Shown in pieces: positions 7,697-51,441 of a DNA stretch of 57,565 bases. Positions within the stretch are counted from its first letter, which is position 1. Every line of letters begins with the position of its first letter. The notes under the pieces are model-generated. The model saw only the letters and a program-made list of their open reading frames with translations. It did not search any database and was not told the DNA's origin. The position numbers and the translations under genes are program-made. Origin of the DNA: Candidatus Aquilonibacter sp. GTDB lineage: Bacteria > Vulcanimicrobiota > Vulcanimicrobiia > Vulcanimicrobiales > Vulcanimicrobiaceae. The stretch spans positions 1 to 57,565 of the forward strand of contig JBAUEZ010000126.1 of the NCBI GenBank assembly GCA_049678885.1, given 5' to 3'.

Positions 7697-7701
7697 CTCC
7701 G

Positions 7702-17918: not shown

Positions 17919-17993
17919 GGTGATTGTAGCTCAGTTGGTTAGAGCGCCGGCCTGTGAAGCCGGAGGCCGGGGGTTCGAGCCCCCTCAGTCACC
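17919..17993 (+). tRNA. tRNA-His (anticodon GUG), with encoded G-1
   Basis: An extra 5' G precedes acceptor GTGATTG/CAGTCAC. Anticodon arm CCGGC-CTGTGAA-GCCGG, T loop TTCGAGC, and CCA follows. Track ORF 17920.. starts inside this tRNA. Confidence 0.9.
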
Positions 17994-18093
17994 CCAAAAA
18001 ATTAAAGAGCCCGTCCTCGTTAAATGGGGCGGGCTCTTGCCTGTCCAAGGTACGGTGGGAGTAGGCCCCTCCTTCACGAAGCTACATCGTCCA

Positions 18094-33954: not shown

Positions 33955-35871
33955 GTGATATCCATTGCCAACGGTCGACGCGCGATCCGGCCGCTGCTGC
34001 GGGCCGCGCTCTTCGTGGTGGATTGCATCCTCGTCACCTTTGCTACGCTCCTCGCGCCGATGGTCGGCGACATCCACAGCGCCTCGTGGTCGCAGCTCGT
34101 GCTGATCGGCGCGATTCTGCTCGTCACCGGCTGCTACGTGCAGTTCCGCTACGAGAGTGCGCGCACGTTCGATTTTCACGACGTCGTTCGGTTACTGGTC
34201 GGGGCGGCAAGCGGTGCGCTCCTCGCGCTGCTCTTCGAAGAGATCCCATCGCCGCTCACCGCTGCCTCTGGACGGCTGGTGGTTATTGCGGCGACGCTCT
34301 CCTTCGTATTGCGGATGTTCGCCCGCATCGCACTGGTGTTACTTCGCAGCTGGTGGCGCCGCCGACGCCCACAAGCCAAGCGTGTGCTCATCGTCGGGCA
34401 CGGCATCGCTGCACACCAAATCGCAAAAGCGATCTTCGAAGATGAGCGAGTCCCTATGCGCGTCGTAGGCTGCGTTGATGACGGGATCTCCGAGCGGCGC
34501 ATCGACGGCGTGCGCGTACTGGGCAAACTTCGCCAACTTCCGGAGCTGGTGCGCAAAGAAGCCGTAGATACGGTGATCGTTGCGATCGTCGGCGCTCCGC
34601 TCTGGTTGATCAACGAGGTCAACGAACTCTGCAGGCGCCTTCCGGTCGAGATTCGCCCCAACGTGAACGTCGTGCCCGACGCAGTAGACGTGCTCTCGGA
34701 GCGAGTGACAATCTCCCGCATTCGGGACATTCGTTTGGAGGACGTGTTGGATCGCGAGCCGGTCGTGATCGACACCGTGGGCATTCGTCCACACTTGGAA
34801 GGGCAGGTCGTGCTCGTTACCGGCGCCGGCGGTTCGATCGGTGGTGAGACCTGCCGGCAGGTCGCGGCTTTCGAACCGGAACTCCTGGTGCTCTTGGGTC
34901 ACGGCGAAAACAGCCTGTTCTCGATCGAGCGCGAGCTGCACGAAACGTATCACTTCACGCGCACGAAAATGGTGCTCGCCGATGTTGCCGACGTGGGGGC
35001 CGTGCGTCACGTATTTAGCACGTATAAGCCGCGCGTCATCATGCACGCCGCGGCCCACAAACACGTGCCGATCGTCGAAGAGAACATCTGCGAAGCAATC
35101 CGCAATAATGTTTTCGGGACAAAGGTCGTAGCGCTCGCCGCCGCAGCTTCGGGTGCCGCGAAGTTCATCCTGCTCTCAACCGACAAGGCGGTTAATCCTT
35201 CGAGCGTCATGGGCGCAACGAAGCGGCTTGCCGAGCTCATCTGCCAGTCGTTTGCCGGCGGTTCGGCGACCGAGTTCGTCTCGGTACGTTTTGGCAACGT
35301 GCTCGGTAGCCGCGGTAGCGTGGTGCCGATCTTCAAGAGCCAAGTCAAGGCGGGCGGCCCGGTGACGATCACGCATCGCGATATGGTGCGTTACTTCATG
35401 ACCATCCCGGAGGCTGTTTCGCTGGTGTTGCAGGCGATGTCGATGGGTATGGACGGCGAGGTCTTCGTGCTCGACATGGGCTCGCCGGTGCGCATCCTGG
35501 ATTTGGCCGAACAAGTAATTCGGCTCTCCGGTTTCGAGCCGTACCGCGATATCGCGATCGTCGAGAGCGGCATTCGTCCGGGTGAAAAGCTCTTCGAAGA
35601 GATGCTCACCAGCGGCGAGGGATTCACCAGAACCTCGCACGAGCGGCTCTTTATTGCCAAACAAGATCGCCTAGACTACGCGCAGCTCAACGACGGCGTG
35701 GATCGGCTTCGTGCCGCCGTTCGACGGCAAGATGCGCAAACTGCACTCGGCGTGCTGCGCGAATTCGTCCCTGAGTACGCTCCCCGTCACGACCTTCCGC
35801 GCGTTGTGCACGTTGAGCGTGGCCTGGTCGCACCCAATCGCACTATCCCCCTCGAGGCTAGCTCAACGTGA
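33955..35871 (+). CDS. Membrane-bound nucleotide-sugar 4,6-dehydratase (CapD / PglF / WbpM family polysaccharide biosynthesis protein)
   Basis: 638 aa. Four N-terminal TM helices, then VLVTGAGGSIG, HAAAHKHVP, STDKAV.P..VMGATKR, RFGNVLGSRGSV. Confidence 0.9.
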   Translation: MISIANGRRAIRPLLRAALFVVDCILVTFATLLAPMVGDIHSASWSQLVLIGAILLVTGCYVQFRYESARTFDFHDVVRLLVGAASGALLALLFEEIPSPLTAASGRLVVIAATLSFVLRMFARIALVLLRSWWRRRRPQAKRVLIVGHGIAAHQIAKAIFEDERVPMRVVGCVDDGISERRIDGVRVLGKLRQLPELVRKEAVDTVIVAIVGAPLWLINEVNELCRRLPVEIRPNVNVVPDAVDVLSERVTISRIRDIRLEDVLDREPVVIDTVGIRPHLEGQVVLVTGAGGSIGGETCRQVAAFEPELLVLLGHGENSLFSIERELHETYHFTRTKMVLADVADVGAVRHVFSTYKPRVIMHAAAHKHVPIVEENICEAIRNNVFGTKVVALAAAASGAAKFILLSTDKAVNPSSVMGATKRLAELICQSFAGGSATEFVSVRFGNVLGSRGSVVPIFKSQVKAGGPVTITHRDMVRYFMTIPEAVSLVLQAMSMGMDGEVFVLDMGSPVRILDLAEQVIRLSGFEPYRDIAIVESGIRPGEKLFEEMLTSGEGFTRTSHERLFIAKQDRLDYAQLNDGVDRLRAAVRRQDAQTALGVLREFVPEYAPRHDLPRVVHVERGLVAPNRTIPLEASST

Positions 35872-37205
35872 AAGTACTGGAAGCATCGTCCCTGCGCGCA
35901 AGCGCGCTCAAGAAGAAGATCGTCGATCGGAGCGCGGTCGTTGGCGTTGTCGGTGTCGGCTACGTCGGGCTGCCGCTGGCAGTCGAGAAGGCCAAGGTCG
36001 GTTTCAACGTGATCGGCTACGATCGCAATCCAATTCGCGTCGATCAGGTCAACCAAGGCCTCAACTACATCCGCGACGTGCACGACCAAGAGCTGACGGA
36101 GGTCGTTGAAGGCGGCAAGCTCAGCGCAACGAGCGACTTCGGAACCCTCGGATCGTGCGATTGCATCGTGATCTGCGTGCCGACGCCGCTCACGGCGAAC
36201 AAGGAGCCGGATATCACGTACATCCGCGGCGTCGCGCAGGAGATCAAGCGATTATTGCGCCCCGGGCAACTGGTAAGTCTCGAGAGCACGACGTACCCCG
36301 GCACGACGGAGGAAGTGCTCCTTACCATACTGGCAGAGTCGGGCTTGCGCGTCGGCGAGGATTTTTTTCTCGCGTTTTCTCCCGAGCGCGTCGATCCCGG
36401 CAACGCGCGCTATACGACCAAGAACACCAGCAAGGTCGTCGGGGGCGTCACCGCTGCGTGTCTCGACGTCGCTACCTGTTTTTACGAGCAGACAATTGCA
36501 AACGTCGTGCCTGTGTCTTCTCCCAAGATCGCCGAGATGACGAAGGTCTTCGAAAACACGTTTCGCGCCGTCAATATCGCGCTCGTCAACGAGATGACCC
36601 TGCTCTGCGACCGTTTGGGCATCAGCATCTGGGACGTGCTCGACGCAGCGGCGACCAAGCCGTTCGGCATCATGCGCTTCGATCCCGGACCGGGTGTTGG
36701 CGGTCACTGTATTCCGCTCGATCCGTTCTATCTCGCCTGGAAGGCGCGTGAGTACGACATGAACGTGCGCTTTATCGAACTCGCCGGTGAGATAAACTGG
36801 ACGATGCCGTATTTTGTTCGCGAGAAAGTCATACGTGCTCTCAACCAGCAAGGCGTCGCGCTCAAGGGCTCCGAGATCTTTGTGCTGGGCGTCGCGTACA
36901 AGCGCGATATCGAGGACTGGCGTGAATCACCGGCGCTCAAGGTGATGCATCTGCTGCGCAACGACGGCGTACGGATCGACTATCACGACCCACACGTTCC
37001 GAGCGTTACCGACGAGCACGGCGCGATGTGGCATTCCATTCCGCTCTCGCGCGAGGTCATGGAGCGCGCGAACGCCGTCTTGATACTCACCGATCACACG
37101 ATGATCGACTACAGGCGCGTGGTGGATTGTTCGCGCCTCGTGATTGACACGCGCAACGCCACGAAAGCGGTGCGCGAGGGTCGAAAGAACGTGGTGATGC
37201 TGTAA
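35868..37205 (+). CDS. UDP-N-acetyl-D-glucosamine (or -mannosamine) 6-dehydrogenase, WbpA/WecC-like
   Basis: 445 aa. GVVGVGYVGLPLA, catalytic Cys context GPGVGGHCIPLDP, and a C-terminal UDP-binding domain. First gene of a WbpA-B-D-E-I-ordered block. Confidence 0.85.
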   Translation: MKVLEASSLRASALKKKIVDRSAVVGVVGVGYVGLPLAVEKAKVGFNVIGYDRNPIRVDQVNQGLNYIRDVHDQELTEVVEGGKLSATSDFGTLGSCDCIVICVPTPLTANKEPDITYIRGVAQEIKRLLRPGQLVSLESTTYPGTTEEVLLTILAESGLRVGEDFFLAFSPERVDPGNARYTTKNTSKVVGGVTAACLDVATCFYEQTIANVVPVSSPKIAEMTKVFENTFRAVNIALVNEMTLLCDRLGISIWDVLDAAATKPFGIMRFDPGPGVGGHCIPLDPFYLAWKAREYDMNVRFIELAGEINWTMPYFVREKVIRALNQQGVALKGSEIFVLGVAYKRDIEDWRESPALKVMHLLRNDGVRIDYHDPHVPSVTDEHGAMWHSIPLSREVMERANAVLILTDHTMIDYRRVVDCSRLVIDTRNATKAVREGRKNVVML

Positions 37206-38190
37206 TGAAGATCGGCGTTATCGGTGCAGGCCGTTGGGGTCGCAACATCCTGCGTGTCTGCTCGCAACTCGGCGTACTGGACAGCATCTGCGATGCGAAC
37301 GAGGCTGCACTGGCTGCAGCCGGCATCGAGTACCCCCGAGCGAATCTCGAATTCGAGATCGGTTCGTTGCTCGAGCGTGATATCGACGCGGTTGCAATCG
37401 CGGCACCGCCGATGGTCCACGCGGAACTCGCGCTTGCTGCGCTCGATGCGGACAAGCACGTGTTCGTCGAGAAGCCGCTGGCGATGACCGTGGAAGATGC
37501 AGCGATGGTGGTACGCGCAGCCCGTGCGCACCGTGCCACGCTCTTCGTTGGGCACCTGCTGCTCTATCATCCGGCGGTGCAGCGGATGCTCGAGCTCATT
37601 CGCGAGGGAGCGATCGGCGAGGTGCGGCACGCGCGCTCGCGACGGCTGTCGTGGGGCACGCTACGCGCAAACGAGAACGTTTGGTGGAGTTTTGCGCCGC
37701 ACGACGTGGCACTCGTCCTCGAGATCTTTGACGAGATGCCGCTCGACGCGAGCGGTGCGCTTTCCGGCTTCATCCGCCCGCAGATCGCCGATTTCGCGTA
37801 CGCCGACCTCACGTTTACGGGTGCTCGCAGCGCGCATATCGAGACGAGCTGGATCGATCCGGATAAGAGTTCGCGCTTGGATGTCTTTGGGTCAAACGGC
37901 GTGCTCTGTCTGGTTGATGCTCCATTAGGGGCGCAGCTCACGCTGACGCCGTGCGGGACGACGTACGACGACGTCGGTCACCCCGAGCTGTGGCGCAGGG
38001 ATGCGCGATGTGTCGATTTCACGCCGGCTGAACCGCTCGAAGCGGAGCTGCGCGCATTCATCGATGCCGCCCGCCACGGGCTGCGGCCGCCGACCGACGG
38101 TGAGAGCGGCCTTGCGGTCGTGAAGGTGCTGAGCATGCTCGGCGCACGAGGCCGGCGCGGCGCGTCGGAGAAACTCGCGGAGGAGATCGC

Positions 38191-38194
<4 letters not shown>
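37205..38194 (+). CDS. Gfo/Idh/MocA-family oxidoreductase, WbpB-like (UDP-GlcNAcA 3-dehydrogenase type)
   Basis: 329 aa. [12 protein letters not shown] Rossmann motif and the EKPLA motif. Position and size match WbpB. Confidence 0.75.
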
Positions 38195-38771
<577 letters not shown>

Positions 38772-38787
<16 letters not shown>

Positions 38788-39896
38788 TTCCAATCCTGGA
38801 TCTGCGGCGCCAGTACCATGCTTTAGAGGCTGACATCGCGCGCGCAGTGCGAGCCGTCCTCGAGAGCGGGCATTTTATCAACGGTCCCAACGTCGAACTG
38901 CTCGAGACCGAGCTCGCCGCATATGCCGGCACAACCTTCGGTGTCGCTGTCAACTCGGGGACCGATGCGCTCCATCTGGCGCTCCGTGCACTCGATATCG
39001 GTCCCGGCGACGAGGTGATCACCTCCCCGTTTACCTTCATCGCGACCTCCGAGGCGATCTCAATGGTCGGCGCGACGCCGGTCTTCGCCGATATCGATCC
39101 GCGGACGTTCAACATCGATCCGCAAGCAACCCAGGCAGCGATCACATCGCGCACCCAGGCCATCGTGCCGGTGCATCTCTACGGTAACCCGGCACCGATG
39201 CAAGAGCTTCTCGCAATCGCCGCGCAGGCGGGGCTCGCGGTCGTCGAGGATTGCGCGCAAGCGATCGGCGCGTCGATCGATGGCGTGCCGGTGGGGAGCT
39301 TCGGCGATGCCGCGGCGTTCAGCTTTTTCCCGTCCAAGAACTTAGGTGCATATGGCGACGGCGGCATGCTCGTCACTTCGCGCAAAGACGTCGCGGATCG
39401 CGTGCGCTCCCTACGGTCGCACGGCGGGCGCGTGAAGTATCATCACGAGGAGCTTGGCGTCAACAGCCGGCTGGACGAATTGCAAGCCGCAATCCTGCGT
39501 GTGAAGCTCCCGCACCTCGATGCGTGGATCGCGCGCCGGCGTGAGATCGCAGGCGCATATTCGGATGCGTTGGCCGAGGACGTCGTCGTGCCGCAGGAGA
39601 CGCCGGGCGCGAGGCATGTCTACCACCAGTACACGCTACGCTTACCCGAACGCGATACTGCGCAGAGCGACCTTGCCGCGCGCGGCATCGGGACGATGGT
39701 GTACTATCCCGTCCCTCTGCATCTGCAGGCAGTCTACGAACCTCTCGGGTATCGGCGCGGCGAGTTCGAACACACCGAGCGGGCGGCGGAAGAAGTGCTC
39801 TCGCTGCCGATCTTTCCCGAGCTGCGCACTGACGAGTGCGAGGCCGTCATCGACGCGCTACGCAGCCTGCGTCGCGGCGCGGTTCCGTCACGGTGA
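38772..39896 (+). CDS. DegT/DnrJ/EryC1/StrS-family PLP aminotransferase, WbpE-like
   Basis: ATG at 38772 ([15 protein letters not shown]...). Motifs [29 protein letters not shown] (PLP Lys), and HQYT near the C-terminus. Confidence 0.85.
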
Positions 39897-40981
39897 AGAT
39901 CCTCACGGTCGTCGGCGCGCGCCCGCAGTTCGTGAAGGCTGCGCTGCTTTCGCGCGAATTGCGCGCACGCCGCGTCGACGAGACGGTCGTCCATACGGGG
40001 CAGCACTACGATTTCAACATGAGCGAAGTATTCTTCAGCGAGTTGCGTATGGCGCCGCCGAAGCACAACCTTGGCGTGGGGTCCTCCTCGCACGCCACCC
40101 AGACCGCGCAGATCATGAGCAAACTCGAACCGATAATGCTCTTCGAACAAGCCGAGCTTGTCGTTGTGTACGGTGACACCAACAGCACGCTCGCGGGGGC
40201 GCTCGTTGCAAGCAAGTTGAACGTGCCGGTTGCCCACGTCGAGGCGGGGTTGCGCTCGTTCGACCGTACGATGCCCGAGGAGATCAATCGCGTCGTGGCC
40301 GATCGACTGAGTACGCTGTTGTTCGCACCGACACGGGGCGCAGCGAATCAACTTCGGCGCGAAGGGATCGAAGAAGGTGTAGCGGTCGTCGGTGACCTGA
40401 TGGTCGATTTGGCGCTCGACATGGCGAAAACCATCGATACCTCGCCTCACGTGCTTGAGCGCTTCGGCGTTCGCCGCCGGGGATATGCGGTCGCGACGAT
40501 CCATCGTGCCGCGAACACTGACGACGTCGCGGTTTTTGCGCGTCTCGTAGCCGGACTGCGTCGAAGCGATGTGCGCATAATCTTTCCGGTCCATCCGCGC
40601 ACACAACCGCTTGTCGATCTGCTTCGGGTCGGCGACTCGGACAACATCACTATATGCGAGCCGCTCTCGTACTTGGATATGCTGGCGTTGCAGATGTACG
40701 CCCGTGTCGTGATCACCGATTCGGGCGGTATGCAAAAAGAAGCCGTAACGCTCGGTACTCCCTGCGTGACTCTGCGCGACCGCACGGAATGGAACGAAAC
40801 GCTCGAAGACGGTTGGAACGTGTTGACCGGCTCCGACCCCGAAGCGATAGCCTCTGCGGCTGCGCGCGAACCGCCCGCCCAGCGTATCGCGCCGTTTGGC
40901 GTGGGAGACAGCGCAGCCAAGATCGTAGACGTCCTGACTGGTGCGACCGTGACGGAGCGCGAGCAATCGTGCGTCTCTTGA
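39893..40981 (+). CDS. UDP-N-acetylglucosamine 2-epimerase (non-hydrolysing) family, WbpI/WecB-like
   Basis: GTG at 39893 overlaps the previous stop (GTGA). Motifs [53 protein letters not shown]. Confidence 0.88.
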   Translation: MKILTVVGARPQFVKAALLSRELRARRVDETVVHTGQHYDFNMSEVFFSELRMAPPKHNLGVGSSSHATQTAQIMSKLEPIMLFEQAELVVVYGDTNSTLAGALVASKLNVPVAHVEAGLRSFDRTMPEEINRVVADRLSTLLFAPTRGAANQLRREGIEEGVAVVGDLMVDLALDMAKTIDTSPHVLERFGVRRRGYAVATIHRAANTDDVAVFARLVAGLRRSDVRIIFPVHPRTQPLVDLLRVGDSDNITICEPLSYLDMLALQMYARVVITDSGGMQKEAVTLGTPCVTLRDRTEWNETLEDGWNVLTGSDPEAIASAAAREPPAQRIAPFGVGDSAAKIVDVLTGATVTEREQSCVS

Positions 40982-42267
40982 GACGCGCGCTGCTGCTCAC
41001 GTACTACTGGCCTCCTCGTCCAGCAATAGCGTCGGTTCGAGCGGAGCACCTCGTTGCGTCGTTAAGCGCGCATGGGTGGGAGGTGGTCCCGGTCGTCCCC
41101 GACTTCGGCGACGTGTGTTACGACCGATCCGTCTGCACCACTGGTGTGGTCGAGTTCAAAGCGCCGGTGCGGCGGTTTCTCGGCGTTCGGGAGGGTGAAA
41201 CAGCGCACGCGCACTTCCATGTGGACGAGCGTGGCGTACTCGAGCGTCCGAGTTGGAAGCAACAGGCCCTCGAAACCGGGCATCGCGTGCTCAGTTTCGC
41301 CGACGGCCGGCTTGGCTGGCTCGGCCCCGGCGTGCGCGCCGTGAGAGAGATCCTGCGTAAAGAACGCGTCGACGCAATTATATCGACGTCGCCGCCAGTT
41401 GCGACGCATCTCGTTGCTGCGGGGGCGCGAGGGGACGTTCCGTGGATCGCCGACTTGCGCGACCCATGGCTGCGCAGCGACGATCTCTCGGGCGGTCCGG
41501 TTTTTCGCGCTATCGACGAGTTGCTCGAGGGCTACGCGTTTCGGGCAGCAGGCGCGCTTGTTACCGTCTCGGAGCCGATCGCGCAGAGCCTGCGTAATCG
41601 CTATCCACATAAGCGTGTCTACGCCATCGCTAATGCATTTTGGAAACGAGAATGGGACGGGATCCCATTCGTCCACCCACCAAAGGCGACGTTCTTGCAC
41701 GCCGGCTCGCTCTATCGCGGCGCGCGCAACCCGCGCCCGTTCTTTGAGGCCCTCGCGCAACTGCGCCGTGAAGGCGAGATCAGCGAGCGCGAGGTCTCCG
41801 TCGAATTCTATGGGGAGCGCGAGAATTGGCTCGAGTGTGAGATCGAACGGTACGGATTGGGTGGAATCGTGGCGCTCTGCGGGCGCCGGCCTCGCGCAGA
41901 GATCCTTGCGCGCGAACGCGCGGCGTCGCGCTTAGTCGTAATCGCCGCAGACGGTGCCGAAGAGCGCGGAACGTATACGGGCAAGCTCTTCGAATATCTT
42001 GGCGCGCGCAGACCGATCATCGCCGTCGGAGGGCCGGCGGAACGGACCGTGATGGACGAGGCGCTTACTCTCAGCGGCGCTGGGGAGCGCCATCGCGACG
42101 CCGGCGGATTGCAGGTCGCAATCATTCGAGCGCTCGAGGAGTGGCGTCGTGGTGAAACGGCGACGCTCACCGAGGAGGCCGTCGCACCGTTCGAACTTAC
42201 GCAGTTCGGTGCGCGCTATGCGCGCGTCGTCGAGGAAGTATCGAACGCGGCAAGCGCATCGCGATAA
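40969..42267 (+). CDS. Glycosyltransferase (GT-B fold, GT4-like)
   Basis: In-frame GTG at 40969. The N-terminal LLLTYYWPP...SVRAEHL pattern and STSPP are typical of a GT4-like subfamily. The upstream part of track ORF 40654.. lies inside the epimerase gene. Confidence 0.65.
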   Translation: MRLLRRALLLTYYWPPRPAIASVRAEHLVASLSAHGWEVVPVVPDFGDVCYDRSVCTTGVVEFKAPVRRFLGVREGETAHAHFHVDERGVLERPSWKQQALETGHRVLSFADGRLGWLGPGVRAVREILRKERVDAIISTSPPVATHLVAAGARGDVPWIADLRDPWLRSDDLSGGPVFRAIDELLEGYAFRAAGALVTVSEPIAQSLRNRYPHKRVYAIANAFWKREWDGIPFVHPPKATFLHAGSLYRGARNPRPFFEALAQLRREGEISEREVSVEFYGERENWLECEIERYGLGGIVALCGRRPRAEILARERAASRLVVIAADGAEERGTYTGKLFEYLGARRPIIAVGGPAERTVMDEALTLSGAGERHRDAGGLQVAIIRALEEWRRGETATLTEEAVAPFELTQFGARYARVVEEVSNAASASR

Positions 42268-43397
42268 ATGTCGCGGTAGCGCTGCGCATTTACACGCCAG
42301 GTTAGGCGTTTGGCCGCGAATCTCCGTGCTGCATCTCCAAGGCGAGCACGCAGAGTATCGTCACCGAGAACGCGCGTAAGCGCAGATGCCAATTCGGCGC
42401 TTGCCCGTGGGGCCACCAACAGCCCGGTCGTCCCGTCGCGGATGATTTCCGGGATTCCGCCTACAGTTGTAGCCACAACCGCGCGTTGCGAAAGCATCGC
42501 TTCGCAGACGACGACGGGTAAGCCCTCGTCGTGACTCGGGAGAACCACCGCGTCGGCTGCACCAAAATGTTCTGCGACGCCGGCAGAATCTCGCTGTCCA
42601 ACCAGTCGCAGCTCGACTCCGGCATCCTTTGACTGTGCTAGCAGCGCTGCCGCATCGGGCCCGCTGCCCACTACGAGTAGAATGGGACGCAAAGGCTTGT
42701 CGATTCGCGCGAGCGCCGCGACCAAATCGAACAAACCCTTCGCGCGGCAAACGGTTCCCGCAAAAGCGACAATCGAGCGATCTTGAGGCAACTGCAGACG
42801 AGCCCGGCATTCTGCGCTATCGCGCGGGAAGAACGTGAACTCGTCGCCACCGTTCCAAATAACCTCTGCAGGCCGCTGGGCTATTCGCTGAATCGACCGA
42901 TCGATAAATGCACTGACCGCGGTTAGGCGCGTCGCCTTGAAGATCGTCTCGCGCGCCGCGCGAAGCAAACCTGGACGTTCGAAGGGCCATCGATAGGCAT
43001 CCCCGCCATGCGCCGTTACGACGGTTGGAACGGGATGGCGGACGGCAATATGTCCCGAGGAGATCAAAAAATGCGCATGTACGATGTCGGGGCGAAAGCG
43101 CTCGATCTCGCGTCGCACCGCCACGTGCACCTCGAACGGCAAATACTCCATGCCGATGTTGCGCGGAGGAACCACGGCGCGAATCGTTCGCACGCTGAAG
43201 CCGTCGATCTCCTCCCTCGGCGGAATCTCGCAATACGCTCGCCATTTGGCACCGATCGGCGGCGCGTACGGAACGACACGCAGGACCTCGCATTCGTGGC
43301 CGAGCTCACGCAACGCTTGCATCTGATGAAGCACGAAGATTCCCGGATTCGGCTGTCGCGCCGACGGGAAGACCAGCGGCAGTACCAATACACGCAT
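42216..43397 (-). CDS. Glycosyltransferase family 4 (GT-B, E-x7-E)
   Basis: MRVLVLPLVFP start at 43397. The C-terminal VLPSHDEGLPVVVCEAMLSQRAVVATTVGGIPEII is the GT4 retaining-transferase signature. Its 3' end overlaps the convergent GT by about 52 nt. Confidence 0.88.
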   Translation of the reverse strand: MRVLVLPLVFPSARQPNPGIFVLHQMQALRELGHECEVLRVVPYAPPIGAKWRAYCEIPPREEIDGFSVRTIRAVVPPRNIGMEYLPFEVHVAVRREIERFRPDIVHAHFLISSGHIAVRHPVPTVVTAHGGDAYRWPFERPGLLRAARETIFKATRLTAVSAFIDRSIQRIAQRPAEVIWNGGDEFTFFPRDSAECRARLQLPQDRSIVAFAGTVCRAKGLFDLVAALARIDKPLRPILLVVGSGPDAAALLAQSKDAGVELRLVGQRDSAGVAEHFGAADAVVLPSHDEGLPVVVCEAMLSQRAVVATTVGGIPEIIRDGTTGLLVAPRASAELASALTRVLGDDTLRARLGDAARRFAAKRLTWRVNAQRYRDIYRDALAAFDTSSTTRA

Positions 43398-43401
43398 TGC
43401 G

Positions 43402-44577
43402 CTACTTGAATGCAATTGTTGCCTGTAAAGGTGCTAGCTGCGCGGGCGGCGGTTGATTTGTTATACGAACCGCGCCGCCGTCGAAGACGCCCGAGCCCGA
43501 TAGGACCAGCGTTCGGCTGTAGCCGGGCAGCGAGACCGGATGCGCGCTGACGGCGTCCGAGTTGACTGCCGCGGCACACGGCCCGACCGAGCGGGCCGCC
43601 AGATAACACGTGCGGTATTCGCGGACGTACGATCCTTTGGCTTGGCGCAACTGCGCGATGTCGTGCACGTCGCCGGTCACGGGATTCAAAGCAACCAGCT
43701 GGCTCTCGGGCATCACGTGCGCACCCGTCGGCGTTTTATAATATTCCCAGAGCACGCTCGTTCTTGGATCGTACGTCAACAGAAACGACGCATAACTATA
43801 CGTGCGAGATGCGTACGCTTGTGTGGCGAGCGTCAAGTCACGCCCATAACAAAAGAAGTACTTGCCCGCATCTGCCATGCGAATCTCAGTGTTTTCTGTT
43901 GCTTCCCATTGCCATCCGCCGACGCTGTGCACGCTGCCCAGTTGGGCATAGCACGACTCCTGCATTCCGCCGATCGCGGCGGCGTTGAGGGCAATCACCT
44001 TCGAGACGGCATGACCGTCGAAAATGCCGAGTCCGTTGTAAATTACGGGCAGGCCGACGTTTTGCATCAGGTAGAGCTCGTCTTGAATCCATTGATCGAA
44101 GCTGTAGTTGCAGGGTGTGTCTTGCGCGTATGCGGCGCCGACGGCGTCGTCCGCGAACACGGCGGTGAAGTTGCCGCCCCCCCGCAGGACCATAGTTCTC
44201 CAAGCCGATGCAAGCGCTCGCGACCGCGGATTGGTGAGCACCTGACCCGGGTAGCTTGCCGACGCACGGACTCTCGTCCCCGAGCACGTGTGCAAGTATT
44301 GACTTTCGTCCTGGCTGTACATCGCGTCCGACGGCTGCAGTCGGTTCGGATCGCTGTACGCGACCGTCTTGACGCCGAACGGGAGGATCTTTAGGGACGA
44401 GGATGCATTCGTCTCGACCCAGCTGAGCCACTGGGCGGCTTGGTTCGCGGGCACGACCTTCGTTCCGGCGTAGCCTCCCCAATAATCCGCTGTTTGAACG
44501 TGACTCGGAACCTGAGCAGTCAGCGCCGCAATCAACGATATCATCACGAGCGACCGTACGAACATTCGCCGCACCAT
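43402..44577 (-). CDS. Secreted protein consisting only of the uncharacterised ~390-aa domain (paralog B)
   Basis: I prefer the ATG at 44577 (MVRRMFVRSLVMISLIAALTAQ signal peptide); the start is uncertain. It shares ADYWGG, DPNR, CSG, FADD, PVIYNGLG, GW.WE.TENTE, ASFLLTYDP, VLWEY, AHVMPE, VGPCAAAVN and TLVLSGSGVFDGG with paralogs A and C. Confidence 0.8.
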   Translation of the reverse strand: MVRRMFVRSLVMISLIAALTAQVPSHVQTADYWGGYAGTKVVPANQAAQWLSWVETNASSSLKILPFGVKTVAYSDPNRLQPSDAMYSQDESQYLHTCSGTRVRASASYPGQVLTNPRSRALASAWRTMVLRGGGNFTAVFADDAVGAAYAQDTPCNYSFDQWIQDELYLMQNVGLPVIYNGLGIFDGHAVSKVIALNAAAIGGMQESCYAQLGSVHSVGGWQWEATENTEIRMADAGKYFFCYGRDLTLATQAYASRTYSYASFLLTYDPRTSVLWEYYKTPTGAHVMPESQLVALNPVTGDVHDIAQLRQAKGSYVREYRTCYLAARSVGPCAAAVNSDAVSAHPVSLPGYSRTLVLSGSGVFDGGAVRITNQPPPAQLAPLQATIAFK

Positions 44578-44730: not shown

Positions 44731-46896
44731 ATGCCCCATTCACGAGGCCCCATGTTTCCGTTGTTCGGAGTGCCGATTTTTGCGACGATCCAGAGGATGG
44801 AAGAGTCTGTCGCTATCGTCATGTCGACGTTGAACGAGGAGTCCAGCATCGATTCTGCGCTCGACGCGATCGAATCCCAAACCGCCGGTGTGCGGATCCT
44901 CGTCATCGACGGCGGCTCGAACGACACGACTGTCGATCGCCTCCACCGGCGTGCGGCACGAAATCCCCGTCTGCGTGTCCATGCCGATGGCGTGCGCCGC
45001 TCGCTGCCCGAAGCGCTGAACGTCGGGCTCGCCGAGATCGAAGAGTCGTTCGTGGTGAAAGTCGACGCGCGAACGTTTATCGCGCCCGATTTTATCGAAC
45101 GGGCTCTGCAGATTTTCGAACGCGAAGGTCCCTGCGTCGCTTGCGTCGGAGGCCGCCCTGAGCAATACGGCCAGACGAATTTTGGACAGAGCGTCGCGTA
45201 TGCCCGGATGTCTCCATTCGGCGTCGGCGGTAGCGGATACGCCGACACGCGACCGTACGCCGACGTCGACACGGTTCAGTGTGGCGTATACCGGCGCAGC
45301 GCATTACTCGAGGTCGGAGGATTCGACGGTGCGTTGCAGTTCGGTGAGGACGAGGAACTGAATTGGCGCCTGCGCAAAGCGGGATATCGAATAGTTCGCG
45401 ACACCAACGTACGATTTCGCTATGTTGCGCGTTCCACGTGGCGCGGAGCCTTTGCACAGTATCGTAACTACGGTCGCGCTCGAGCTCGCGTCGTGGCCAA
45501 ACATCCGGGTTTTATGCGTCCGCGTCATCTCGTCCCCACTGCAGTGCTGCTCGGCGGCGCTGCGCTCATCGCCGCGGCGCCGTTCTCTCGTCGCGCTCGC
45601 ACGCTGCTCGGCGTCGTCGCGCTCGCCTATGGAGCCGCTGCAGCTGGGGCAGCCTGCGCGGCAGCTCGAAAGGATATTCGGCGCGCTCCGGCCACCGCGT
45701 TCGCCTTCACGGCGCTCCATTTAGGATACGGAATCGGGCTACTCGAAGGGCTGCGCGCGCGTCGGCCGCCGCGACACGATGTACCGAAGAAGGTTGCACA
45801 TCTCACCTCAGTGCACGATCCGGGCGACTCCCGCATCACCGTAAAGGAATGTGCAACGTTGCTCGAATCTGGATATAACGTCGTGCTAGTCGCACCAGGA
45901 GCGCTGCGCAATGCTCCTTTGGGGCTCACATTCCGTTCGCTACCGCTGCCGAAAAATCGCTTCGAGCGTCTGACGCGCACGGTGTGGAACGTCTATCGCG
46001 CGGCCCTAAAAGAGAAGGCCGACGTCTATCACTTCCACGATCCCGAGCTGATCTTCGTCGGACTCGCGCTGCGGCTGATCGGCGCGCGCGTGATCTTCGA
46101 TGTGCACGAAAACATTCCGGCCGATATCGTCGACAAGCCGTGGATCGCGCCTTCGTTGCGGCGTCCGGTCGCGGCAGCCTCTGCTGCCGCCCTGCGCGTA
46201 TTCAACCGATTCTTCAGCGCGGTCATCGCTGCAACACCCACGATCGCGAGCGGACTTCAACACGATCGGCTCGCAGTGGTGAACAATTATCCCCGCGCCG
46301 ACGAATTTGCGGCTGTAGTTGATGATGATTTTTCAGATCGTCCCGCATCGGTATTGTACCTGGGAAGCATTACGCTCATTCGATGTATTGACCGGCTTGT
46401 CGGCGCGCTCGCGCATCCTGAAATGAGTGACGGAATCCGCTTGACGCTGATCGGCCGCTTTGAAGACGCTCGCCTCGAGCAGCGCATATCGGCAATGCCG
46501 GGTTGGAATCGTGTAGACTATCTGGGTTGGCGCTCTCGCAAGGACGTTCAAAGCATCGTCGGAAGGGTGCGTGCCGGCGTTATTCTCTTTCGTACGGGGC
46601 CGAATATCGATGATGCGCTCCCGACGAAACTCTTCGAATATATGGCTGCCGGTCTGCCGGTAGTCGTCTCGTCCACGCTTCGCTGCAGCTCGCTTGTAGT
46701 TGACGCCGGATGCGGAGTTGTCGTTGATCCCGACGACGAAGCAGCGGTTGCACGGGCGATCAGCGATTTGGTGAGCAACCCCAGTTTGGCTCAAGCCATG
46801 GGTGCACGCGGAAGACGTCTCGTGCTCGAACGGTATCTATGGGAGAGCGAAGGCACTCGACTGACGAAATTATACGCGGAGATCGCGACCGCGTGA
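44731..46896 (+). CDS. Bifunctional glycosyltransferase: N-terminal GT2 (ExoA-like, with TM segment) fused to C-terminal GT4
   Basis: 721 aa; the start is uncertain (44731, 44752 or 44797). GT2 part: VAIVMSTLNEE, VIDGGSNDTT, KVDAR, GEDEELNWRL, followed by 3-4 hydrophobic helices. GT4 part: VAHLTSVHDPGDSRI...YHFHDPEL...FEYMAAGLPVVVS. Confidence 0.8.
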   Translation: MPHSRGPMFPLFGVPIFATIQRMEESVAIVMSTLNEESSIDSALDAIESQTAGVRILVIDGGSNDTTVDRLHRRAARNPRLRVHADGVRRSLPEALNVGLAEIEESFVVKVDARTFIAPDFIERALQIFEREGPCVACVGGRPEQYGQTNFGQSVAYARMSPFGVGGSGYADTRPYADVDTVQCGVYRRSALLEVGGFDGALQFGEDEELNWRLRKAGYRIVRDTNVRFRYVARSTWRGAFAQYRNYGRARARVVAKHPGFMRPRHLVPTAVLLGGAALIAAAPFSRRARTLLGVVALAYGAAAAGAACAAARKDIRRAPATAFAFTALHLGYGIGLLEGLRARRPPRHDVPKKVAHLTSVHDPGDSRITVKECATLLESGYNVVLVAPGALRNAPLGLTFRSLPLPKNRFERLTRTVWNVYRAALKEKADVYHFHDPELIFVGLALRLIGARVIFDVHENIPADIVDKPWIAPSLRRPVAAASAAALRVFNRFFSAVIAATPTIASGLQHDRLAVVNNYPRADEFAAVVDDDFSDRPASVLYLGSITLIRCIDRLVGALAHPEMSDGIRLTLIGRFEDARLEQRISAMPGWNRVDYLGWRSRKDVQSIVGRVRAGVILFRTGPNIDDALPTKLFEYMAAGLPVVVSSTLRCSSLVVDAGCGVVVDPDDEAAVARAISDLVSNPSLAQAMGARGRRLVLERYLWESEGTRLTKLYAEIATA

Positions 46897-48515
46897 TTTC
46901 GTCCCGGTGGTTTTGGCTCGTGGTGGGCCTCGCCGTTGTGCTCGGAACGTTCTTTCGCGTCGAGCATATCGAACGCCGGCTATTCTGGACCGACGAGAGC
47001 TGGACGGCACTTCGCGTCTCCGGTCACACGTACGTCGAGGTGAGGCATCTTTTCGACGGACGAGTCCACACGAACGTCGACGTGACACGCTTCCAACAGG
47101 CCGATCCGTATCGCAACCTTTCAGCTACCGTTTCAGGACTCGCTGCCGAAGAGCCGCAACATCCTCCCGTTTTCTACGTCCTCGACCACGTCTGGGCCCT
47201 CATGTTCGGAAGTGCGATACCCGCACTCCGATCTCCGGCGCTGCTCTTCAGTATCGCCGCGATTGCCGGGGCGTACTGGTTCGTCGCCGAACTCTCCGGA
47301 AGCGCGATCGCGGCGGGTGCAGCTGCCGCGATCATGGCCGTCTCTCCATTCTTCGTCAATTACGGGGGTCAAGCGCGCGAATATAGTCTCTGGACGATGG
47401 CCGTTTGCGTTACATCGGCACTTCTGCTGCGCGCACTTCGCCGCCGTACCGCCCTGAGCTGGGTCTGGTATGCGCTGGCCATGGCGGTGAGCTTGTACTC
47501 CGCGCTCTTTATGATCTCCGTTCTTGCTGCACATGCACTCTACGTCATTGTGGAAAAGAGACAAGACCATAGGAGCATCGCTGCCTTTGCAATCGCTGCC
47601 GTCGTAGCGTTCGCGTCCTTCGTTCCATGGCTCCTCGTATGTGTGCATGGCACGCACGCGATCTGGGCCGAGCAGCAGTGGACGCGAATACCCTATCAAC
47701 TCACCGCATTCATTTCGAAATGGGCGTTTAATACAGACACGGTGCTCTTCGATGCTGAGTACGCCGATATGCGGCTGTTGCCTATCGCGGCCGTAATGCT
47801 CTTCGTCATACTATACAGTGCATTTCGCCTGATTCGAGACGAAAGCTTCCGCACGTGGCGGCTGCTCGTGCTCTTAAGCGCCGCGATTGTGCTTCCGCAG
47901 ATCCTGCTCGATCTTGCGACGCGCGGCCATTCTTCGACTGAATCGCGTTACATGATTCCCCTCTGGCTCTCGCTCCTCGTAGCAGTCGCGCTCCTCTTCG
48001 GACGTGCGCTCAGCCGCTCGCGAACCGGCGTCGCTGCGCTGCCGTTCGCCGCGCTCTGTGCGGTGCTTGCCGTGGCAACGTTTTCATCCGCGCGCAACTC
48101 CACGGCGGTCGTATGGTGGGACAACGACGACGACTATCCGTCGACGGCAATGGCAGCGGAGATTGATGCATCCGGTCCGCGGCCGCTCGTCGTAAGCGAA
48201 GGTCATTGGGCGGAAGTGCTCGTGATGAGCCATTATCTCTCGCCGGACGCTCGCCTACTGCTTTTCAAGGGTACGCCGCCGTTCCCGTTGCCAATAGCAC
48301 GCCGAACGTTTCTGCTCGCGCCTTCAGCGCGAACCCTCGCGGCATTCGCTAGGGAACCGCAATACGCGCTCACCGCGGCAGCACTGGCTCCTCCGGGCAG
48401 TGAGGCGCTCTTAGCGTTCCGCGCAGCGGTGCGCAAGCGCCGTCCCGGCGCAACGGACGACGAAGCGCCCGGGGAGTTTCTGTACCGGATCCAAGCGCGT
48501 GTCGCTCGCCGTTAA
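46893..48515 (+). CDS. GT-C fold membrane glycosyltransferase (ArnT / PMT_2, GT39/GT83-like)
   Basis: GTG at 46893 overlaps the upstream stop (GTGA). More than 10 predicted TM helices. First-loop FWTDESW (D-E motif) and EEPQHPPVFYVL are hallmarks of polyprenyl-phosphate-sugar-dependent GT-C enzymes. Confidence 0.75.
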   Translation: MISSRWFWLVVGLAVVLGTFFRVEHIERRLFWTDESWTALRVSGHTYVEVRHLFDGRVHTNVDVTRFQQADPYRNLSATVSGLAAEEPQHPPVFYVLDHVWALMFGSAIPALRSPALLFSIAAIAGAYWFVAELSGSAIAAGAAAAIMAVSPFFVNYGGQAREYSLWTMAVCVTSALLLRALRRRTALSWVWYALAMAVSLYSALFMISVLAAHALYVIVEKRQDHRSIAAFAIAAVVAFASFVPWLLVCVHGTHAIWAEQQWTRIPYQLTAFISKWAFNTDTVLFDAEYADMRLLPIAAVMLFVILYSAFRLIRDESFRTWRLLVLLSAAIVLPQILLDLATRGHSSTESRYMIPLWLSLLVAVALLFGRALSRSRTGVAALPFAALCAVLAVATFSSARNSTAVVWWDNDDDYPSTAMAAEIDASGPRPLVVSEGHWAEVLVMSHYLSPDARLLLFKGTPPFPLPIARRTFLLAPSARTLAAFAREPQYALTAAALAPPGSEALLAFRAAVRKRRPGATDDEAPGEFLYRIQARVARR

Positions 48516-48522: not shown

Positions 48523-50505
48523 TTACGGGAACGCGATAACCGCCTGACCCGCATCGAGGTATTCCGGCGGCGCCGGCCCTTGCGTCGACATCGTTCCTCC
48601 GTCGAGAACGCCCGATCCGCTAAGCGTTAACGTGTGCCCGAACTGCGGGAACGGAAACGGTGCGACTACTCCCGTCGTCGGATTCAACGCAACCGCACAC
48701 GCTCCGACAAACGCTCCGGCGACAAAACACTCGTTGAACTGTCGCCCGTATGCGCCCCCGGGTTGCTCCAGACTCGCCACGCTGGCCGGCGTCGCCACCG
48801 TGGGATCCAGTACCACGAGTTCCTCCTCCGGGAAGACGTGCAGCCCGGATGCCGTCTCGAAATCCTCCCACAGCACGTCGAGCGAGGGATTATACGTCAG
48901 AAGAAATGAGGCATACGCGTAGATGCGCGCCGCCGTGCTCGAGGAGCCGGCATTCGTGTTGCGCTCCTGACACGAGAACATTTTATTTTGCGCGTTCGTC
49001 TCTAGCTCAGTGTTCTCTTCGGCGGTCCAAAGCCAACCGGTGTGTATGGTGATGGTGTTGGTCGTATAACAGCCCTCGAAGTTTCCGCCGATCGTATTCG
49101 TCGATGGAATCAAACCGAGCGATAGCGAAGGACTATTTCCGTCGACAATTCCCAAGCCGTTGAAGATTACCGGAACGGGCGCAGCGTTCGCTAGCGCGAT
49201 ACTGCCGCTGATCCACGCGCTGTCGGTGTAGTCGCAGGGCAGTGACGGCGAGAATGTGTAGGTAAATTCGCTGAGTGGGCCGCTGTCGTCTTGGTAGATT
49301 GCGTCGTAGTGTGCGCTACCGATCGTGTCTTTGGCGAGGGTTGCGTACGCTGACTGTAATGCGGCTGACGAAGGATTCATCACGTATTGGGTGACGTCGT
49401 CCCAGACGTCCGTCACGCGCACGCCGCTACAGGTCGTTGCGAACGCGGCTGCGGGCGCGGTCGAATAGAGCGCGTCCGTCGTTAGCACGCGATTCGGATC
49501 CAAGTACAGTTGCGTTTTGATGCCCGCACTTGCGATTGCACTGGCGTTGGTCGGTCCCGTTTGCGCCCAGGTTAGATATGGTGCAGCGCTCGAGGCGCTC
49601 ACCGATGTCGTCCCCCAGGGAGTGCCGAGGTAGTCGGCAGTAAGAACGTGCGTTTGCGCTATCGGCACTGGTGTGGGCGTTGCGTGGACATCGGGTGTCG
49701 GATCGACGACAATGACTTGTACGGCAAGTATTGATCCCGAGGTCTCGCCGGTCCCCGTGACCGTTGCCGTAGCGCCTGCTTCGAGCGCCCCTCCCGCGAC
49801 GACGCTGTTCGAAGTCAGCACGATCGGAACCGCTGGATACGAAGAGCTTACCTCTAGCGTGAAGCCATACGCCGCCCCAGCGACGATCCTCCCGCTGGCG
49901 CTTGTCGAACCGGGTGCGCTGCTCGTTTGTGTTGCCACCGTCGCTGTGTACGTAGCCGAAATTGAGCCGGTACCGCCTACTGTTTCGTACTCGCCGACCG
50001 CCGGCGCGCCGCCGATGAACGTCGTGCTCGAGTTCGTAACGATCCACAAGTATCCGTCCTCGGAAGTGTGAATCTGGAAGCCGTTCGTTCGCAACGCGAC
50101 GACCGGGCCTGCAACCGTCGATAGATCGGGCGTCGCGATCGGCGCCGGAGTCGAAGCCGACGTTTGCTGCGTCACGCTCATCGCGGTAATGGAGGTGTTC
50201 AGTGAACCGCTTCCAGTGACGGAGACCTGTTCGCCGACATACGGGTTCGCACCCGAAAACACCGTTGAGGAATTCGTATAGACATTGACGGAGCCGCCCC
50301 CACTAGTTTCAAGCGCGAACTCATTGGCGGCAACCGCAGTGATCTCGCCAGTGGTCTGCACTGTAGAAGGCGTGGGCGAATTGCTAGAGGCCGCCGTGGG
50401 CACGATTGGCGCCGCGCCCGCAAGCCCATGCGAGGCTCCGCCTCCACCGCAGCCCGTTAAAAGCAATGCGAAGAAGAGCGTGACGACAATTGCGCGCTGC
50501 TGCAT
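48523..50505 (-). CDS. Lipoprotein: DUF5666-like beta-domain repeats plus the uncharacterised ~390-aa C-terminal domain (paralog C)
   Basis: 660 aa. Lipobox LLLTGC. Same architecture as paralog A. The C-terminal domain is about 60% identical to A by eye over the stretches I aligned (IAQTHVLTADYLGTPWG..., PVPVIFNGLG, TIGGNFEGCY, GWLWTAEENTELE, GAYGRQF, HTLTLSGSGVLDGG). Confidence 0.85.
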   Translation of the reverse strand: MQQRAIVVTLFFALLLTGCGGGGASHGLAGAAPIVPTAASSNSPTPSTVQTTGEITAVAANEFALETSGGGSVNVYTNSSTVFSGANPYVGEQVSVTGSGSLNTSITAMSVTQQTSASTPAPIATPDLSTVAGPVVALRTNGFQIHTSEDGYLWIVTNSSTTFIGGAPAVGEYETVGGTGSISATYTATVATQTSSAPGSTSASGRIVAGAAYGFTLEVSSSYPAVPIVLTSNSVVAGGALEAGATATVTGTGETSGSILAVQVIVVDPTPDVHATPTPVPIAQTHVLTADYLGTPWGTTSVSASSAAPYLTWAQTGPTNASAIASAGIKTQLYLDPNRVLTTDALYSTAPAAAFATTCSGVRVTDVWDDVTQYVMNPSSAALQSAYATLAKDTIGSAHYDAIYQDDSGPLSEFTYTFSPSLPCDYTDSAWISGSIALANAAPVPVIFNGLGIVDGNSPSLSLGLIPSTNTIGGNFEGCYTTNTITIHTGWLWTAEENTELETNAQNKMFSCQERNTNAGSSSTAARIYAYASFLLTYNPSLDVLWEDFETASGLHVFPEEELVVLDPTVATPASVASLEQPGGAYGRQFNECFVAGAFVGACAVALNPTTGVVAPFPFPQFGHTLTLSGSGVLDGGTMSTQGPAPPEYLDAGQAVIAFP

Positions 50506-50687: not shown

Positions 50688-50703
50688 ACATGTGGGCACA
50701 TGT
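50688..50703. promoter_or_regulatory. Inverted repeat ACATGTG-GG-CACATGT in the regulator upstream region
   Basis: 7-bp perfect arms with a 2-nt spacer, read directly. It sits in the AT-richer 50506-50781 intergenic region. An operator function is only a guess. Confidence 0.3.
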
Positions 50704-50781
50704 ACGGGGTACCCCACTAGACTGAACCTTAGGACTCAATCTGTGGGGTCCCAATTGTATGTCTGGAAAGGACTGGCTTTT

Positions 50782-51441
50782 GTGATCGCAGCGGACAGAA
50801 CTACCAGCGCGTCCGATACGATTCGACTTTACGTAATCGAGGGGCAGGTGCTGTTTGCAAAAGCGCTTTGCCAGGTTTTCGTTTCGGAGAAAAGCATCGA
50901 AGTTGTCGGCGATGCACAAAGCGTGGACGAACGCGCGGTCGCGCGTGCGAAGCCCGACGTGGTAATACTCGATCTCGATGGTGCAACGAACGGTCTCGTT
51001 GAAAGCATCGAACGATGTCACAGCAGCGCACCATCGGCGCGCATTTGCGCACTTACGATGCGCCCGGCCCCGGAGGTGATGCACCGCTGTCTGGCTGCGG
51101 GAGCAGACGCGTACATCATTAAGGATATTATGCCGGGCGAGTTCATCCGTGCCGTGAAGATGGTTGCGGGGGGCGACACGTACGTAGATCCCCGGGTAGC
51201 GGGCGGCTGGCTGAGGCGTCGCTCCTCCGGTGCTCGCGGCGCCGACCTTAATGAGCTTTCGGTACGGGAAACGGAGATAATCCGGCTGATCGCCGAAGGC
51301 CTTTCTAACAAAGAGATCAGCGTCCGGTTAAATCTTTCGGAGAAGACGATCAAGAATCACATCAGTCGAATCTTCTCAAAGCTGAACATCTACGCGCGCA
51401 CGCAAGCCGCGGTGCACGCGATCCGTTTGGGCTTGCTCTAG
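50782..51441 (+). CDS. LuxR/FixJ (NarL)-family response regulator, no cognate kinase in the window
   Basis: I prefer the GTG at 50782, preceded by GGAAAGGA; the track start is 50692. Receiver: LYVIEG..., DVVILDLD, CALT, YIIKD. C-terminal LuxR HTH: LSVRETEIIRLIAEGLSNKEISVRLNLSEKTIKNHISRIFSKL. Confidence 0.8.
   Translation: MIAADRTTSASDTIRLYVIEGQVLFAKALCQVFVSEKSIEVVGDAQSVDERAVARAKPDVVILDLDGATNGLVESIERCHSSAPSARICALTMRPAPEVMHRCLAAGADAYIIKDIMPGEFIRAVKMVAGGDTYVDPRVAGGWLRRRSSGARGADLNELSVRETEIIRLIAEGLSNKEISVRLNLSEKTIKNHISRIFSKLNIYARTQAAVHAIRLGLL

Follow-up and report, generated by a model that had tools for sequence, protein, structure and literature searches.

Three predicted extracytoplasmic glycoside hydrolases of a divergent GHL15/GH168 branch associated with a Wzx/Wzy polysaccharide locus in Candidatus Aquilonibacter

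The contig JBAUEZ010000126.1 of Candidatus Aquilonibacter sp. (assembly GCA_049678885.1), whose whole stretch of 57,565 nucleotides is called the window here, carries three open reading frames (ORFs), A, B and C, which share a C-terminal domain. We propose, with a probability of roughly 60%, that A, B and C are extracytoplasmic retaining endo-glycanases of a divergent GHL15/GH168 clade, and that they process the polymer made by the polysaccharide locus in which B and C lie. Homology to this family, the fold, the conserved residues, the secretion signals and the synteny with related loci were observed. According to this proposal, the three proteins would be paralogous extracytoplasmic glycoside hydrolases with a clan-D-type retaining pair, an Asp directly after strand β4 and a Glu at the end of β6. 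B would be the soluble secreted form, co-transcribed with the gene of a GT4 glycosyltransferase, and A and C would be membrane-anchored lipoproteins in which small β-barrel modules form a stalk that carries the catalytic domain. The family would belong, as a constant part, to a conserved Wzx/Wzy cluster for a surface polysaccharide, and since it is fixed there, its likeliest role would be endo-cleavage of the exported polymer of the cell itself, i.e. trimming, chain-length control, release or remodelling.

The shared domain and its family

An original prediction, made from the letters of the window and its translated reading frames, had described a family of three secreted proteins with a common C-terminal domain that it could not place, and all three ORFs were found where it had put them (Table 1). 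Pairwise BLASTP gave 53% identity between A and C across 621 aa, 39% between B and C across 377 aa (E 5e-80) and 36% between A and B across 375 aa (E 8e-78). The predicted homology of A and C was borne out and the predicted figure of about 60% identity was somewhat high; B is, as had been said, clearly homologous and more diverged. Judged by sequence similarity, which lies far beyond chance, A, B and C are genuine paralogues with a common C-terminal domain of ∼375–385 aa. Every conserved block that had been listed was recovered in our alignment of the three proteins (alignment A1), i.e. TADY.G, DPNR, CSG, DD, PVI(F/Y)NGL, IGG..E.CY and GW.W...ENTE, and further ASFL.TY.P, LWE, HV.PE, VG.CA.A.N and TL.LSGS.V.DGG. 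The frame of ORF B could be extended to 44739, and the lengths of its homologues (387–392 aa) favour a start at 44577 or 44565.

To what family this domain belongs was indicated mainly by the homologues. A itself matches PF14885 (GHL15) with 20.8 bits and E 4e-4 over residues 429–620, where the gathering cut-off is 27 bits, and the Pfam scan gave no PF14885 match at E ≤ 1 for B and C; a scan of NCBIfam gave no match. We found 198 relatives of B, nearly all from metagenome-assembled genomes (MAGs) of the Eremiobacterota type (Baltobacteraceae, Vulcanimicrobiaceae, Ca. Eremiobacter). A precomputed PF14885 match is present in 49 of the 120 B homologues listed, several of which are named ‘putative glycoside hydrolase’ by NCBI. 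Of 60 homologues scanned one by one, 41 matched PF14885 with E ≤ 0.01, among them 22 with E ≤ 5e-6, a value that roughly equals the gathering score of the model; the best value was 4.4e-12, and any other Pfam family was matched by at most 3 of the 60. The crystallised GH168 enzyme MeGH168 (PDB 9NHF; sequence taken from Table 1 of PMC12210190) matches PF14885 over the full model with E 8e-62 and 210 bits. Hence Pfam GHL15, which was called an uncharacterised ‘hypothetical’ family in PMC5765458, corresponds to CAZy GH168. Members of GH168 are retaining endo-α-L-fucanases, and characterised members of the superfamily have been known since 2020 (PMC11685898, PMC12210190).

Structure comparison pointed to the same family. 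In Foldseek searches of the B and C models against the PDB, GH168 structures ranked first and were aligned over their full length (8rg5, 9f9v, 9jom, 9nhf, 9jog, 8rg3 and 9jos; E 4e-11 to 1e-7, template-modelling score 0.54–0.66, identity 10–16%), and the top match of the C model was 9f9v with E 4e-11. GH66, GH191 (TM1410), GH114, Ega3, GH36 and GH31 followed in rank. The A/B/C domain is a divergent branch of GHL15/GH168, with membership that is transitive, via homologues and MeGH168 matching the same Pfam model. Thus the earlier description of an unassigned domain holds insofar as this is a remote clade that mostly escapes the curated model, and fails at the level of the family. The original prediction had also set a high-probability link to a well-characterised Pfam or CAZy family against the novelty of the domain; the link that we found is real but remote, and the genomic context and the probable substrate differ from those of the characterised enzymes.

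Predicted active site, architecture and secretion

In GH168 enzymes the nucleophile is an Asp located where β4 ends, and the acid/base is a Glu located where β6 ends, the pairs being D167/E237 in MeGH168, D152/E228 in Rho5174 and D206/E264 in Fun168A (PMC11685898, PMC12210190). In a profile–profile alignment, the predicted nucleophile D143 and the predicted acid/base E207 of B fall on the catalytic pair of MeGH168, and several further residues are paired between the two proteins (Table 1). On the B side of these pairs, conservation is 89–100% among 269 family sequences; on the MeGH168 side, the residues do not vary in a 22-sequence GH168 alignment (alignment A3). P77 of B is nearly invariant in the family, yet lies outside the aligned pairs. 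The spacing from the Asp to the Glu is 64 residues in B, 71 in A and C and 70 in MeGH168, and in the B model D143 directly follows the strand 139–142 and E207 stands at the end of the strand 203–207. Among the 269 family sequences, conservation is 263/264 for D143, 266/267 for E207, and 267/267 for both R258 and E291, and six Cys are kept in 96–100%; the full set of catalytic residues and Cys is present in all three window copies. The near invariance of the catalytic residues and of the six Cys speaks for active enzymes and for an extracytoplasmic, oxidising environment. The six Cys, which are C98, C156, C209, C243, C324 and C334 in the numbering of B, probably form three disulfides, as would fit a periplasmic or surface location.

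The AlphaFold2 model of B, computed with a 60-sequence alignment, has a predicted local distance difference test (pLDDT) score of 96.1 and a predicted template-modelling score of 0.92. It consists of eight β–α units (strands 29–33, 53–56, 70–75, 139–142, 178–181, 203–207, 240–245 and 274–278) and a β-sandwich that begins near residue 294 and runs to the C-terminus. The full-length model of C has a pLDDT of 86.7, and both models show the same architecture of a (β/α)8 barrel with a small C-terminal β-sandwich. The original prediction had guessed a (β/α)8 glycoside hydrolase or polysaccharide-processing enzyme with a β-sandwich tail, which is what the models show, and the Foldseek matches are glycoside hydrolases only. 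A lyase, which had been put forward as another option, is disfavoured by the fold and was rejected, as no lyase fold is among the structural matches.

Secretion, which had also been predicted, agrees with the N-termini as judged by inspection. A starts with a lipoprotein lipobox (LAA-C18) followed by GGGG, C with a lipobox (LLTG-C19) followed by GGGG and a Gly-rich disordered linker, and B with a plain hydrophobic segment like that of a signal peptide, followed by the domain alone. In the C model, a disordered tether follows the lipid-anchored Cys and disordered linkers separate three β-barrel modules (Table 1). In A, the catalytic domain is preceded by four such modules, arranged a-b-a-b. The modules of A and C resemble DUF5666 (PF18914), to which they match weakly (E 1e-4 to 0.04; best 22.5 bits, E 1.4e-4), and they are six-stranded barrels in the AlphaFold2 model, but none reaches the gathering threshold of 27 bits, 3 of the 7 giving weak matches and 4 of the 7 none. 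Foldseek paired the modules of C with tandem cold-shock/OB domains (7zhh).

The N-terminal 285 aa of C gave no match at E ≤ 1e-3 in a collection of 5.8 billion proteins, C itself included. Full-length C orthologues nevertheless exist, with 49–65% identity over ∼620 aa in four related loci (L002, L024, L026 and L031), and the null search probably reflects a low-complexity composition rich in Ser, Thr, Ala, Gly and Val that defeats the word index or the bias filter.

The catalytic domains of A and C are very acidic, with an isoelectric point (pI) of 4.05 and 7–8 Lys and Arg in ∼375 residues, and B is near neutral with a pI of 6.4 and 25 Lys and Arg. Possible reasons why A and C are so acidic are a cationic substrate, adaptation to an acidic habitat or resistance to proteases.

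The polysaccharide locus and its relatives

B and C lie in a Wzx/Wzy-type polysaccharide locus (Table 1). Its first part holds, in order, a WbpM/PglF-like dehydratase, a UDP-sugar dehydrogenase, a GFO oxidoreductase, a hexapeptide acetyltransferase, a DegT aminotransferase and a 2-epimerase. Its middle part holds two GT4 genes, B, a GT2–GT4 fusion, a PMT_2 GT-C and C, and its last part a LuxR response regulator, a second DegT, Wzy_C, a Wzx-like ORF, Bac_transf and a FemAB/GNAT-like gene. This gene content agrees with the earlier placement of B and C among glycosyltransferases, the GT-C enzyme and Wzx/Wzy genes. From the sugar-nucleotide genes of the cluster we expect a polymer rich in N-acetylated amino and uronic sugars. 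We take the complete WbpA/WbpB/WbpD/WbpE/WbpI-like set to be a pathway of the UDP-ManNAc3NAcA type, which would predict a 2,3-diacetamido-2,3-dideoxy-uronic acid in the polymer. The LuxR/GerE-type response regulator, divergent from C, is a candidate for a dedicated regulator of the locus.

An exhaustive hidden Markov model (HMM) search of 1.84 billion representative proteins found 580 clusters with the domain at E ≤ 1e-3 and 292 at E ≤ 1e-30. In all of these matches the domain forms the C-terminal part, and many members have a long N-terminal extension. By inspection and pattern matching, most of the long forms have a lipobox followed by GGGG, and short forms have plain signal peptides.

Loci were collected from one genome per species with a single peptide pattern, which gave 47 fetched loci, 45 of them distinct, and the proteins of the window locus were compared with these by tblastn. 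Essentially all of the 45 come from MAGs of Eremiobacterota/Vulcanimicrobiota, three contigs being labelled Acidobacteriota and two unidentified, and the source names are those of soil, peat or terrestrial MAGs. Eremiobacterota are a diderm phylum with lipopolysaccharide (PMC9758169, PMC6664022). Genes of the polysaccharide cluster occur within 10 kb of the family in 42 of the 45 distinct loci, and three (L027, L030 and L047) lack any cluster gene. Synteny so strongly conserved supports the association with a glycan locus, and the extracytoplasmic glycan-processing role, that the original prediction had drawn from the window. Among the 47 loci, the GT4 gene that follows B (GT4b) was found in 32, LuxR and each of the two DegT genes in 31, Wzy in 27 and Wzx in 24. 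The LuxR regulator is among the best-conserved cluster genes, with up to 89–90% identity in two loci (L026 and L031).

Most loci hold 2–5 copies of the domain within ∼21 kb, and two of them (L038 and L045) have four or five within ∼20 kb. Full-length C orthologues with β modules have 49–65% identity to C. In several loci a C orthologue stands directly upstream of a B orthologue and the order C→B→GT4 is conserved; in L001 and L002, B and GT4 are 2–3 nt apart. The GT2–GT4 fusion and GT-C genes, which lie on the opposite strand, break up this order in the window. The GT2–GT4 fusion was found in 19 of the 47 loci and a GT-C counterpart in none, so that the two genes look like a lineage-specific insertion into the cluster. 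A general functional partnership with the PMT_2 GT-C was rejected, since the GT-C is missing from all related loci searched.

The three Acidobacteriota-labelled contigs (L014, L026 and L031; Ca. Acidiferrales/Acidoferrum) carry both the family and the same cluster. For LuxR (89–90%), Wzx, Bac_transf and the C orthologue (58–65%), identity to the window is highest in L026 and L031. Either these are mis-binned Eremiobacterota contigs, or they mark horizontal transfer, or the origin of the window is nearer to these MAGs than assumed.

Elsewhere in the window, two large PAS-GGDEF-EAL proteins of cyclic di-GMP turnover are encoded, the second of them ending ∼1.6 kb upstream of A, and a link of these to the regulation of polysaccharide is possible. 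A homogentisate-pathway cluster with an HPPD-like dioxygenase, a fumarylacetoacetase and a homogentisate dioxygenase-like gene is unrelated to A, B and C.

Table 1. Features of the window, and residues of B paired with MeGH168 in the profile–profile alignment (positions count from the first letter of the window)
Feature	Position	Strand	Remarks
ORF A	22494-24713	+	739 aa
ORF B	43402-44577	-	391 aa; gene as called starts at 44565 (387 aa)
ORF C	48523-50505	-	660 aa
A, catalytic domain, residues ∼365-739	23586-24710	+	
C, catalytic (β/α)8 barrel and C-terminal β-sandwich, residues ∼285-660	48526-49653	-	six conserved Cys
C, three β-barrel modules, residues 48-113, 129-194 and 200-267			∼65 aa each, six-stranded, in the AlphaFold2 model
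C, N-terminal 285 aa	49651-50505	-	
A, predicted nucleophile D485	23946-23948	+	
A, predicted acid/base E556	24159-24161	+	
B, predicted nucleophile D143	44149-44151	-	aligned with MeGH168 D167 (nucleophile)
B, predicted acid/base E207	43957-43959	-	aligned with MeGH168 E237 (acid/base)
C, predicted nucleophile D406	49288-49290	-	
C, predicted acid/base E477	49075-49077	-	
B, Y74			aligned with MeGH168 Y96
B, N181			aligned with MeGH168 N213
B, P290-E291			aligned with MeGH168 P332-E333
B, R319			aligned with MeGH168 R354
Wzx/Wzy-type polysaccharide locus holding B and C	33955 to at least 57244		reaches the window edge
WbpA/WbpB/WbpD/WbpE/WbpI-like set	35868-40981	+	complete
GT4 glycosyltransferase	42216-43415	-	immediately downstream of B; B stop 4 nt before or overlapping the GT4 start
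GT2-GT4 fusion and PMT_2-type GT-C	44731-48515	+	between B and C
LuxR/GerE-type response regulator	50692-51441	+	divergent from C
PAS-GGDEF-EAL protein, first	488-3346	-	
PAS-GGDEF-EAL protein, second	17920-20886	+	
Homogentisate-pathway cluster	5707-10166		

The proposed role, its rivals and known systems

Several points weigh against our proposal for A, B and C. At the level of sequence, all three window copies stay below the gathering threshold of PF14885, and the family goes undetected by a narrow HMM made from 22 close GH168 sequences, which aligned no more than the β4 motif with the D (E > 0.03). Searches of PDB sequences, whether with B alone or with a profile of 60 sequences, yielded chance matches only. 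Alignments with hhalign to MeGH168 and GH168 alignments are colinear over 238–287 columns with E values of 0.036–0.13, which are not significant alone, and hence the homology claim rests on the Pfam model and Foldseek. The apparent equivalence of the catalytic pair with that of GH168 draws on a sequence alignment and a secondary-structure string. At the level of context, A lies outside the glycan locus, ∼9 kb upstream, among unrelated genes (its neighbours are a 3-hydroxyisobutyrate-dehydrogenase-like gene and an MmyB-like regulator), and the restriction to Eremiobacterota may in part be an artefact of a genome scan with a single peptide pattern. Moreover, 2–5 paralogues per locus are unusual for a simple trimming enzyme, and hydrolytic activity, a retaining mechanism and the locus product as substrate are what we infer.

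That the proteins are instead catabolic or offensive glycanases, acting on an exogenous polysaccharide such as a plant, algal or fungal glycan or the biofilm matrix of competitors, with an incidental position in the locus, would suit copy A outside the biosynthetic locus. The nearest characterised relatives are catabolic endo-fucanases, and the multiple paralogues resemble the GH168 expansions of polysaccharide degraders (PMC11685898). However, 42 of 45 loci put the family in the same biosynthetic cluster, with tight coupling of B to GT4; no sulfatase, fucosidase, SusC/D-like or transporter gene was seen next to the family in the window, L001 and L002; and the sources are soil, peat and terrestrial MAGs, not marine fucoidan degraders. 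We therefore hold a catabolic role to be unlikely. Similarly improbable, in our judgement, is that the enzymes mainly act as transglycosylases which cross-link polymer segments or attach them to an acceptor in the envelope. They have the fold and the catalytic pair of retaining enzymes, a class in which transglycosylation is frequent; the Foldseek matches include GH31 and GH66 transglycosylases, and weak transglycosylation has been reported for GH114 (PMC12054363); specialised paralogues at each locus and membrane-tethered forms would also suit envelope assembly. The characterised GH168 members, however, are hydrolases (PMC11685898, PMC12210190), and sequence features do not separate a transferase from a hydrolase.

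A role as peptidoglycan glycosidases, which would open the sacculus for export or turnover of the polysaccharide, has a precedent in Cwp19, a GHL10 TIM barrel in a cell-wall-polymer locus of C. difficile (PMC5765458), and the predicted periplasmic or lipoprotein-anchored location would allow it; we nevertheless regard it as very unlikely, as Pfam and Foldseek point to GHL15/GH168 and an α-glycosidase-like superfamily and not to GHL10, muramidase or lytic-transglycosylase folds. We give least credence to the idea of pseudo-enzymes, i.e. non-catalytic glycan-binding or structural surface proteins, which might be substrates of the neighbouring GT-C. The linkers rich in Ser, Thr and Ala and the repeated β modules of A and C are typical of surface proteins, and in the window the 3′-end of C lies 8 nt from the end of the PMT_2 GT-C gene, which runs on the other strand, but at least 263 of 269 sequences retain the predicted nucleophile and acid/base, which speaks for catalysis, and the GT-C is without a counterpart in related loci.

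Processing of the locus's own polymer thus remains the reading that we prefer. A farther-reaching form of it, which we offer tentatively and as doubtful, is that the clade is a new GH family or a deep subfamily of GH168, apparently restricted to Eremiobacterota and recruited from catabolism to the building of the envelope, with its 2–5 specialised paralogues per locus, soluble B forms and lipoprotein-tethered A/C forms, serving as the chain-length, release and remodelling machinery of a Wzx/Wzy polymer in which N-acetylated amino sugars and uronic sugars are abundant. A cationic or zwitterionic repeat unit may then be what the highly acidic A and C domains recognise. In that case GH168/GHL15 would gain a second, non-fucan class of substrate and a role in biosynthesis. 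GH168/GHL15 has so far been known only in the form of marine fucoidan-degrading endo-fucanases; if the proposal is true, a distant branch in a surface-polysaccharide cluster of Eremiobacterota, often with several copies, would broaden both the range of substrates and the biological role known for the superfamily. Eremiobacterota are abundant in soils and peat and barely cultured, and the family would offer a handle on the envelope glycan of the phylum, above all through B, a small single-domain protein that is confidently modelled by AlphaFold. The Pfam and CAZy models for GHL15/GH168 also miss many true relatives.

The characterised GH168 enzymes (Fun168A, Fun168D/E, PbFucA, Rho5174 and MeGH168) come from marine Bacteroidota, Planctomycetota and Verrucomicrobiota and are retaining endo-α-L-fucanases. 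A, B and C are like them in their architecture of barrel and β-sandwich, for which GH168 gives the best full-length structural matches, in the alignment of the Asp(β4)/Glu(β6) pair and of the YNG, PE and R motifs with similar Asp-to-Glu spacing, and in that about one third of the family reaches, roughly, the Pfam GHL15 threshold. They differ in having six invariant Cys, whereas MeGH168 has one Cys, in their signal peptide or lipobox with β-barrel stalk modules, and in their position in a terrestrial Eremiobacterota Wzx/Wzy biosynthetic cluster, whereas GH168 genes lie in fucoidan-utilisation loci with sulfatases and fucosidases. Given a genomic context and traits so unlike those of GH168, the substrate of A, B and C is almost certainly other than sulfated fucan. 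The GH-D-like α-glycosidases (GH27, GH31, GH36, GH66 and GH97) share the β4 nucleophile, the β6 acid/base and a TIM barrel followed by a β-sandwich (Foldseek E 1e-8 to 1e-6), but are far larger multi-domain enzymes, and at the level of sequence we found towards this superfamily one marginal PF01055 match, in 1 of 60 members.

The structural matches to GH114 and GH191 are significant but rank below GH168, being weaker, partial and confined to the barrel. Membership in the endo-α-galactosaminidase families GH114, GH135, GH166 or GH191 was rejected at the level of sequence, as A, B, C and 60 homologues have no match to PF03537 or related Pfam families. The substrate clefts of GH114, GH166 and GH191 are acidic, as are the A and C domains with their pI of 4.05.

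That a biosynthetic cluster carries its own glycanase is well known, and the principle proposed here is not new. PslG and BcsZ have the same processing role in other exopolysaccharide systems, and GH191 enzymes and the C-terminal domain of PgaB are further glycoside hydrolases from such clusters. PelA (GH166), Sph3 (GH135) and Ega3 (GH114) process polymers in their own clusters, and like the predicted A/B/C enzymes they are retaining extracytoplasmic endo-glycanases with a (β/α)8 barrel, an Asp/Glu pair at its C-terminal face and a gene in the cluster of the substrate (PMC12054363). This is a functional analogy: PelA, Sph3 and Ega3 belong to synthase-dependent pathways with one copy each, whereas the A/B/C family belongs to a Wzx/Wzy system with several paralogues per locus.

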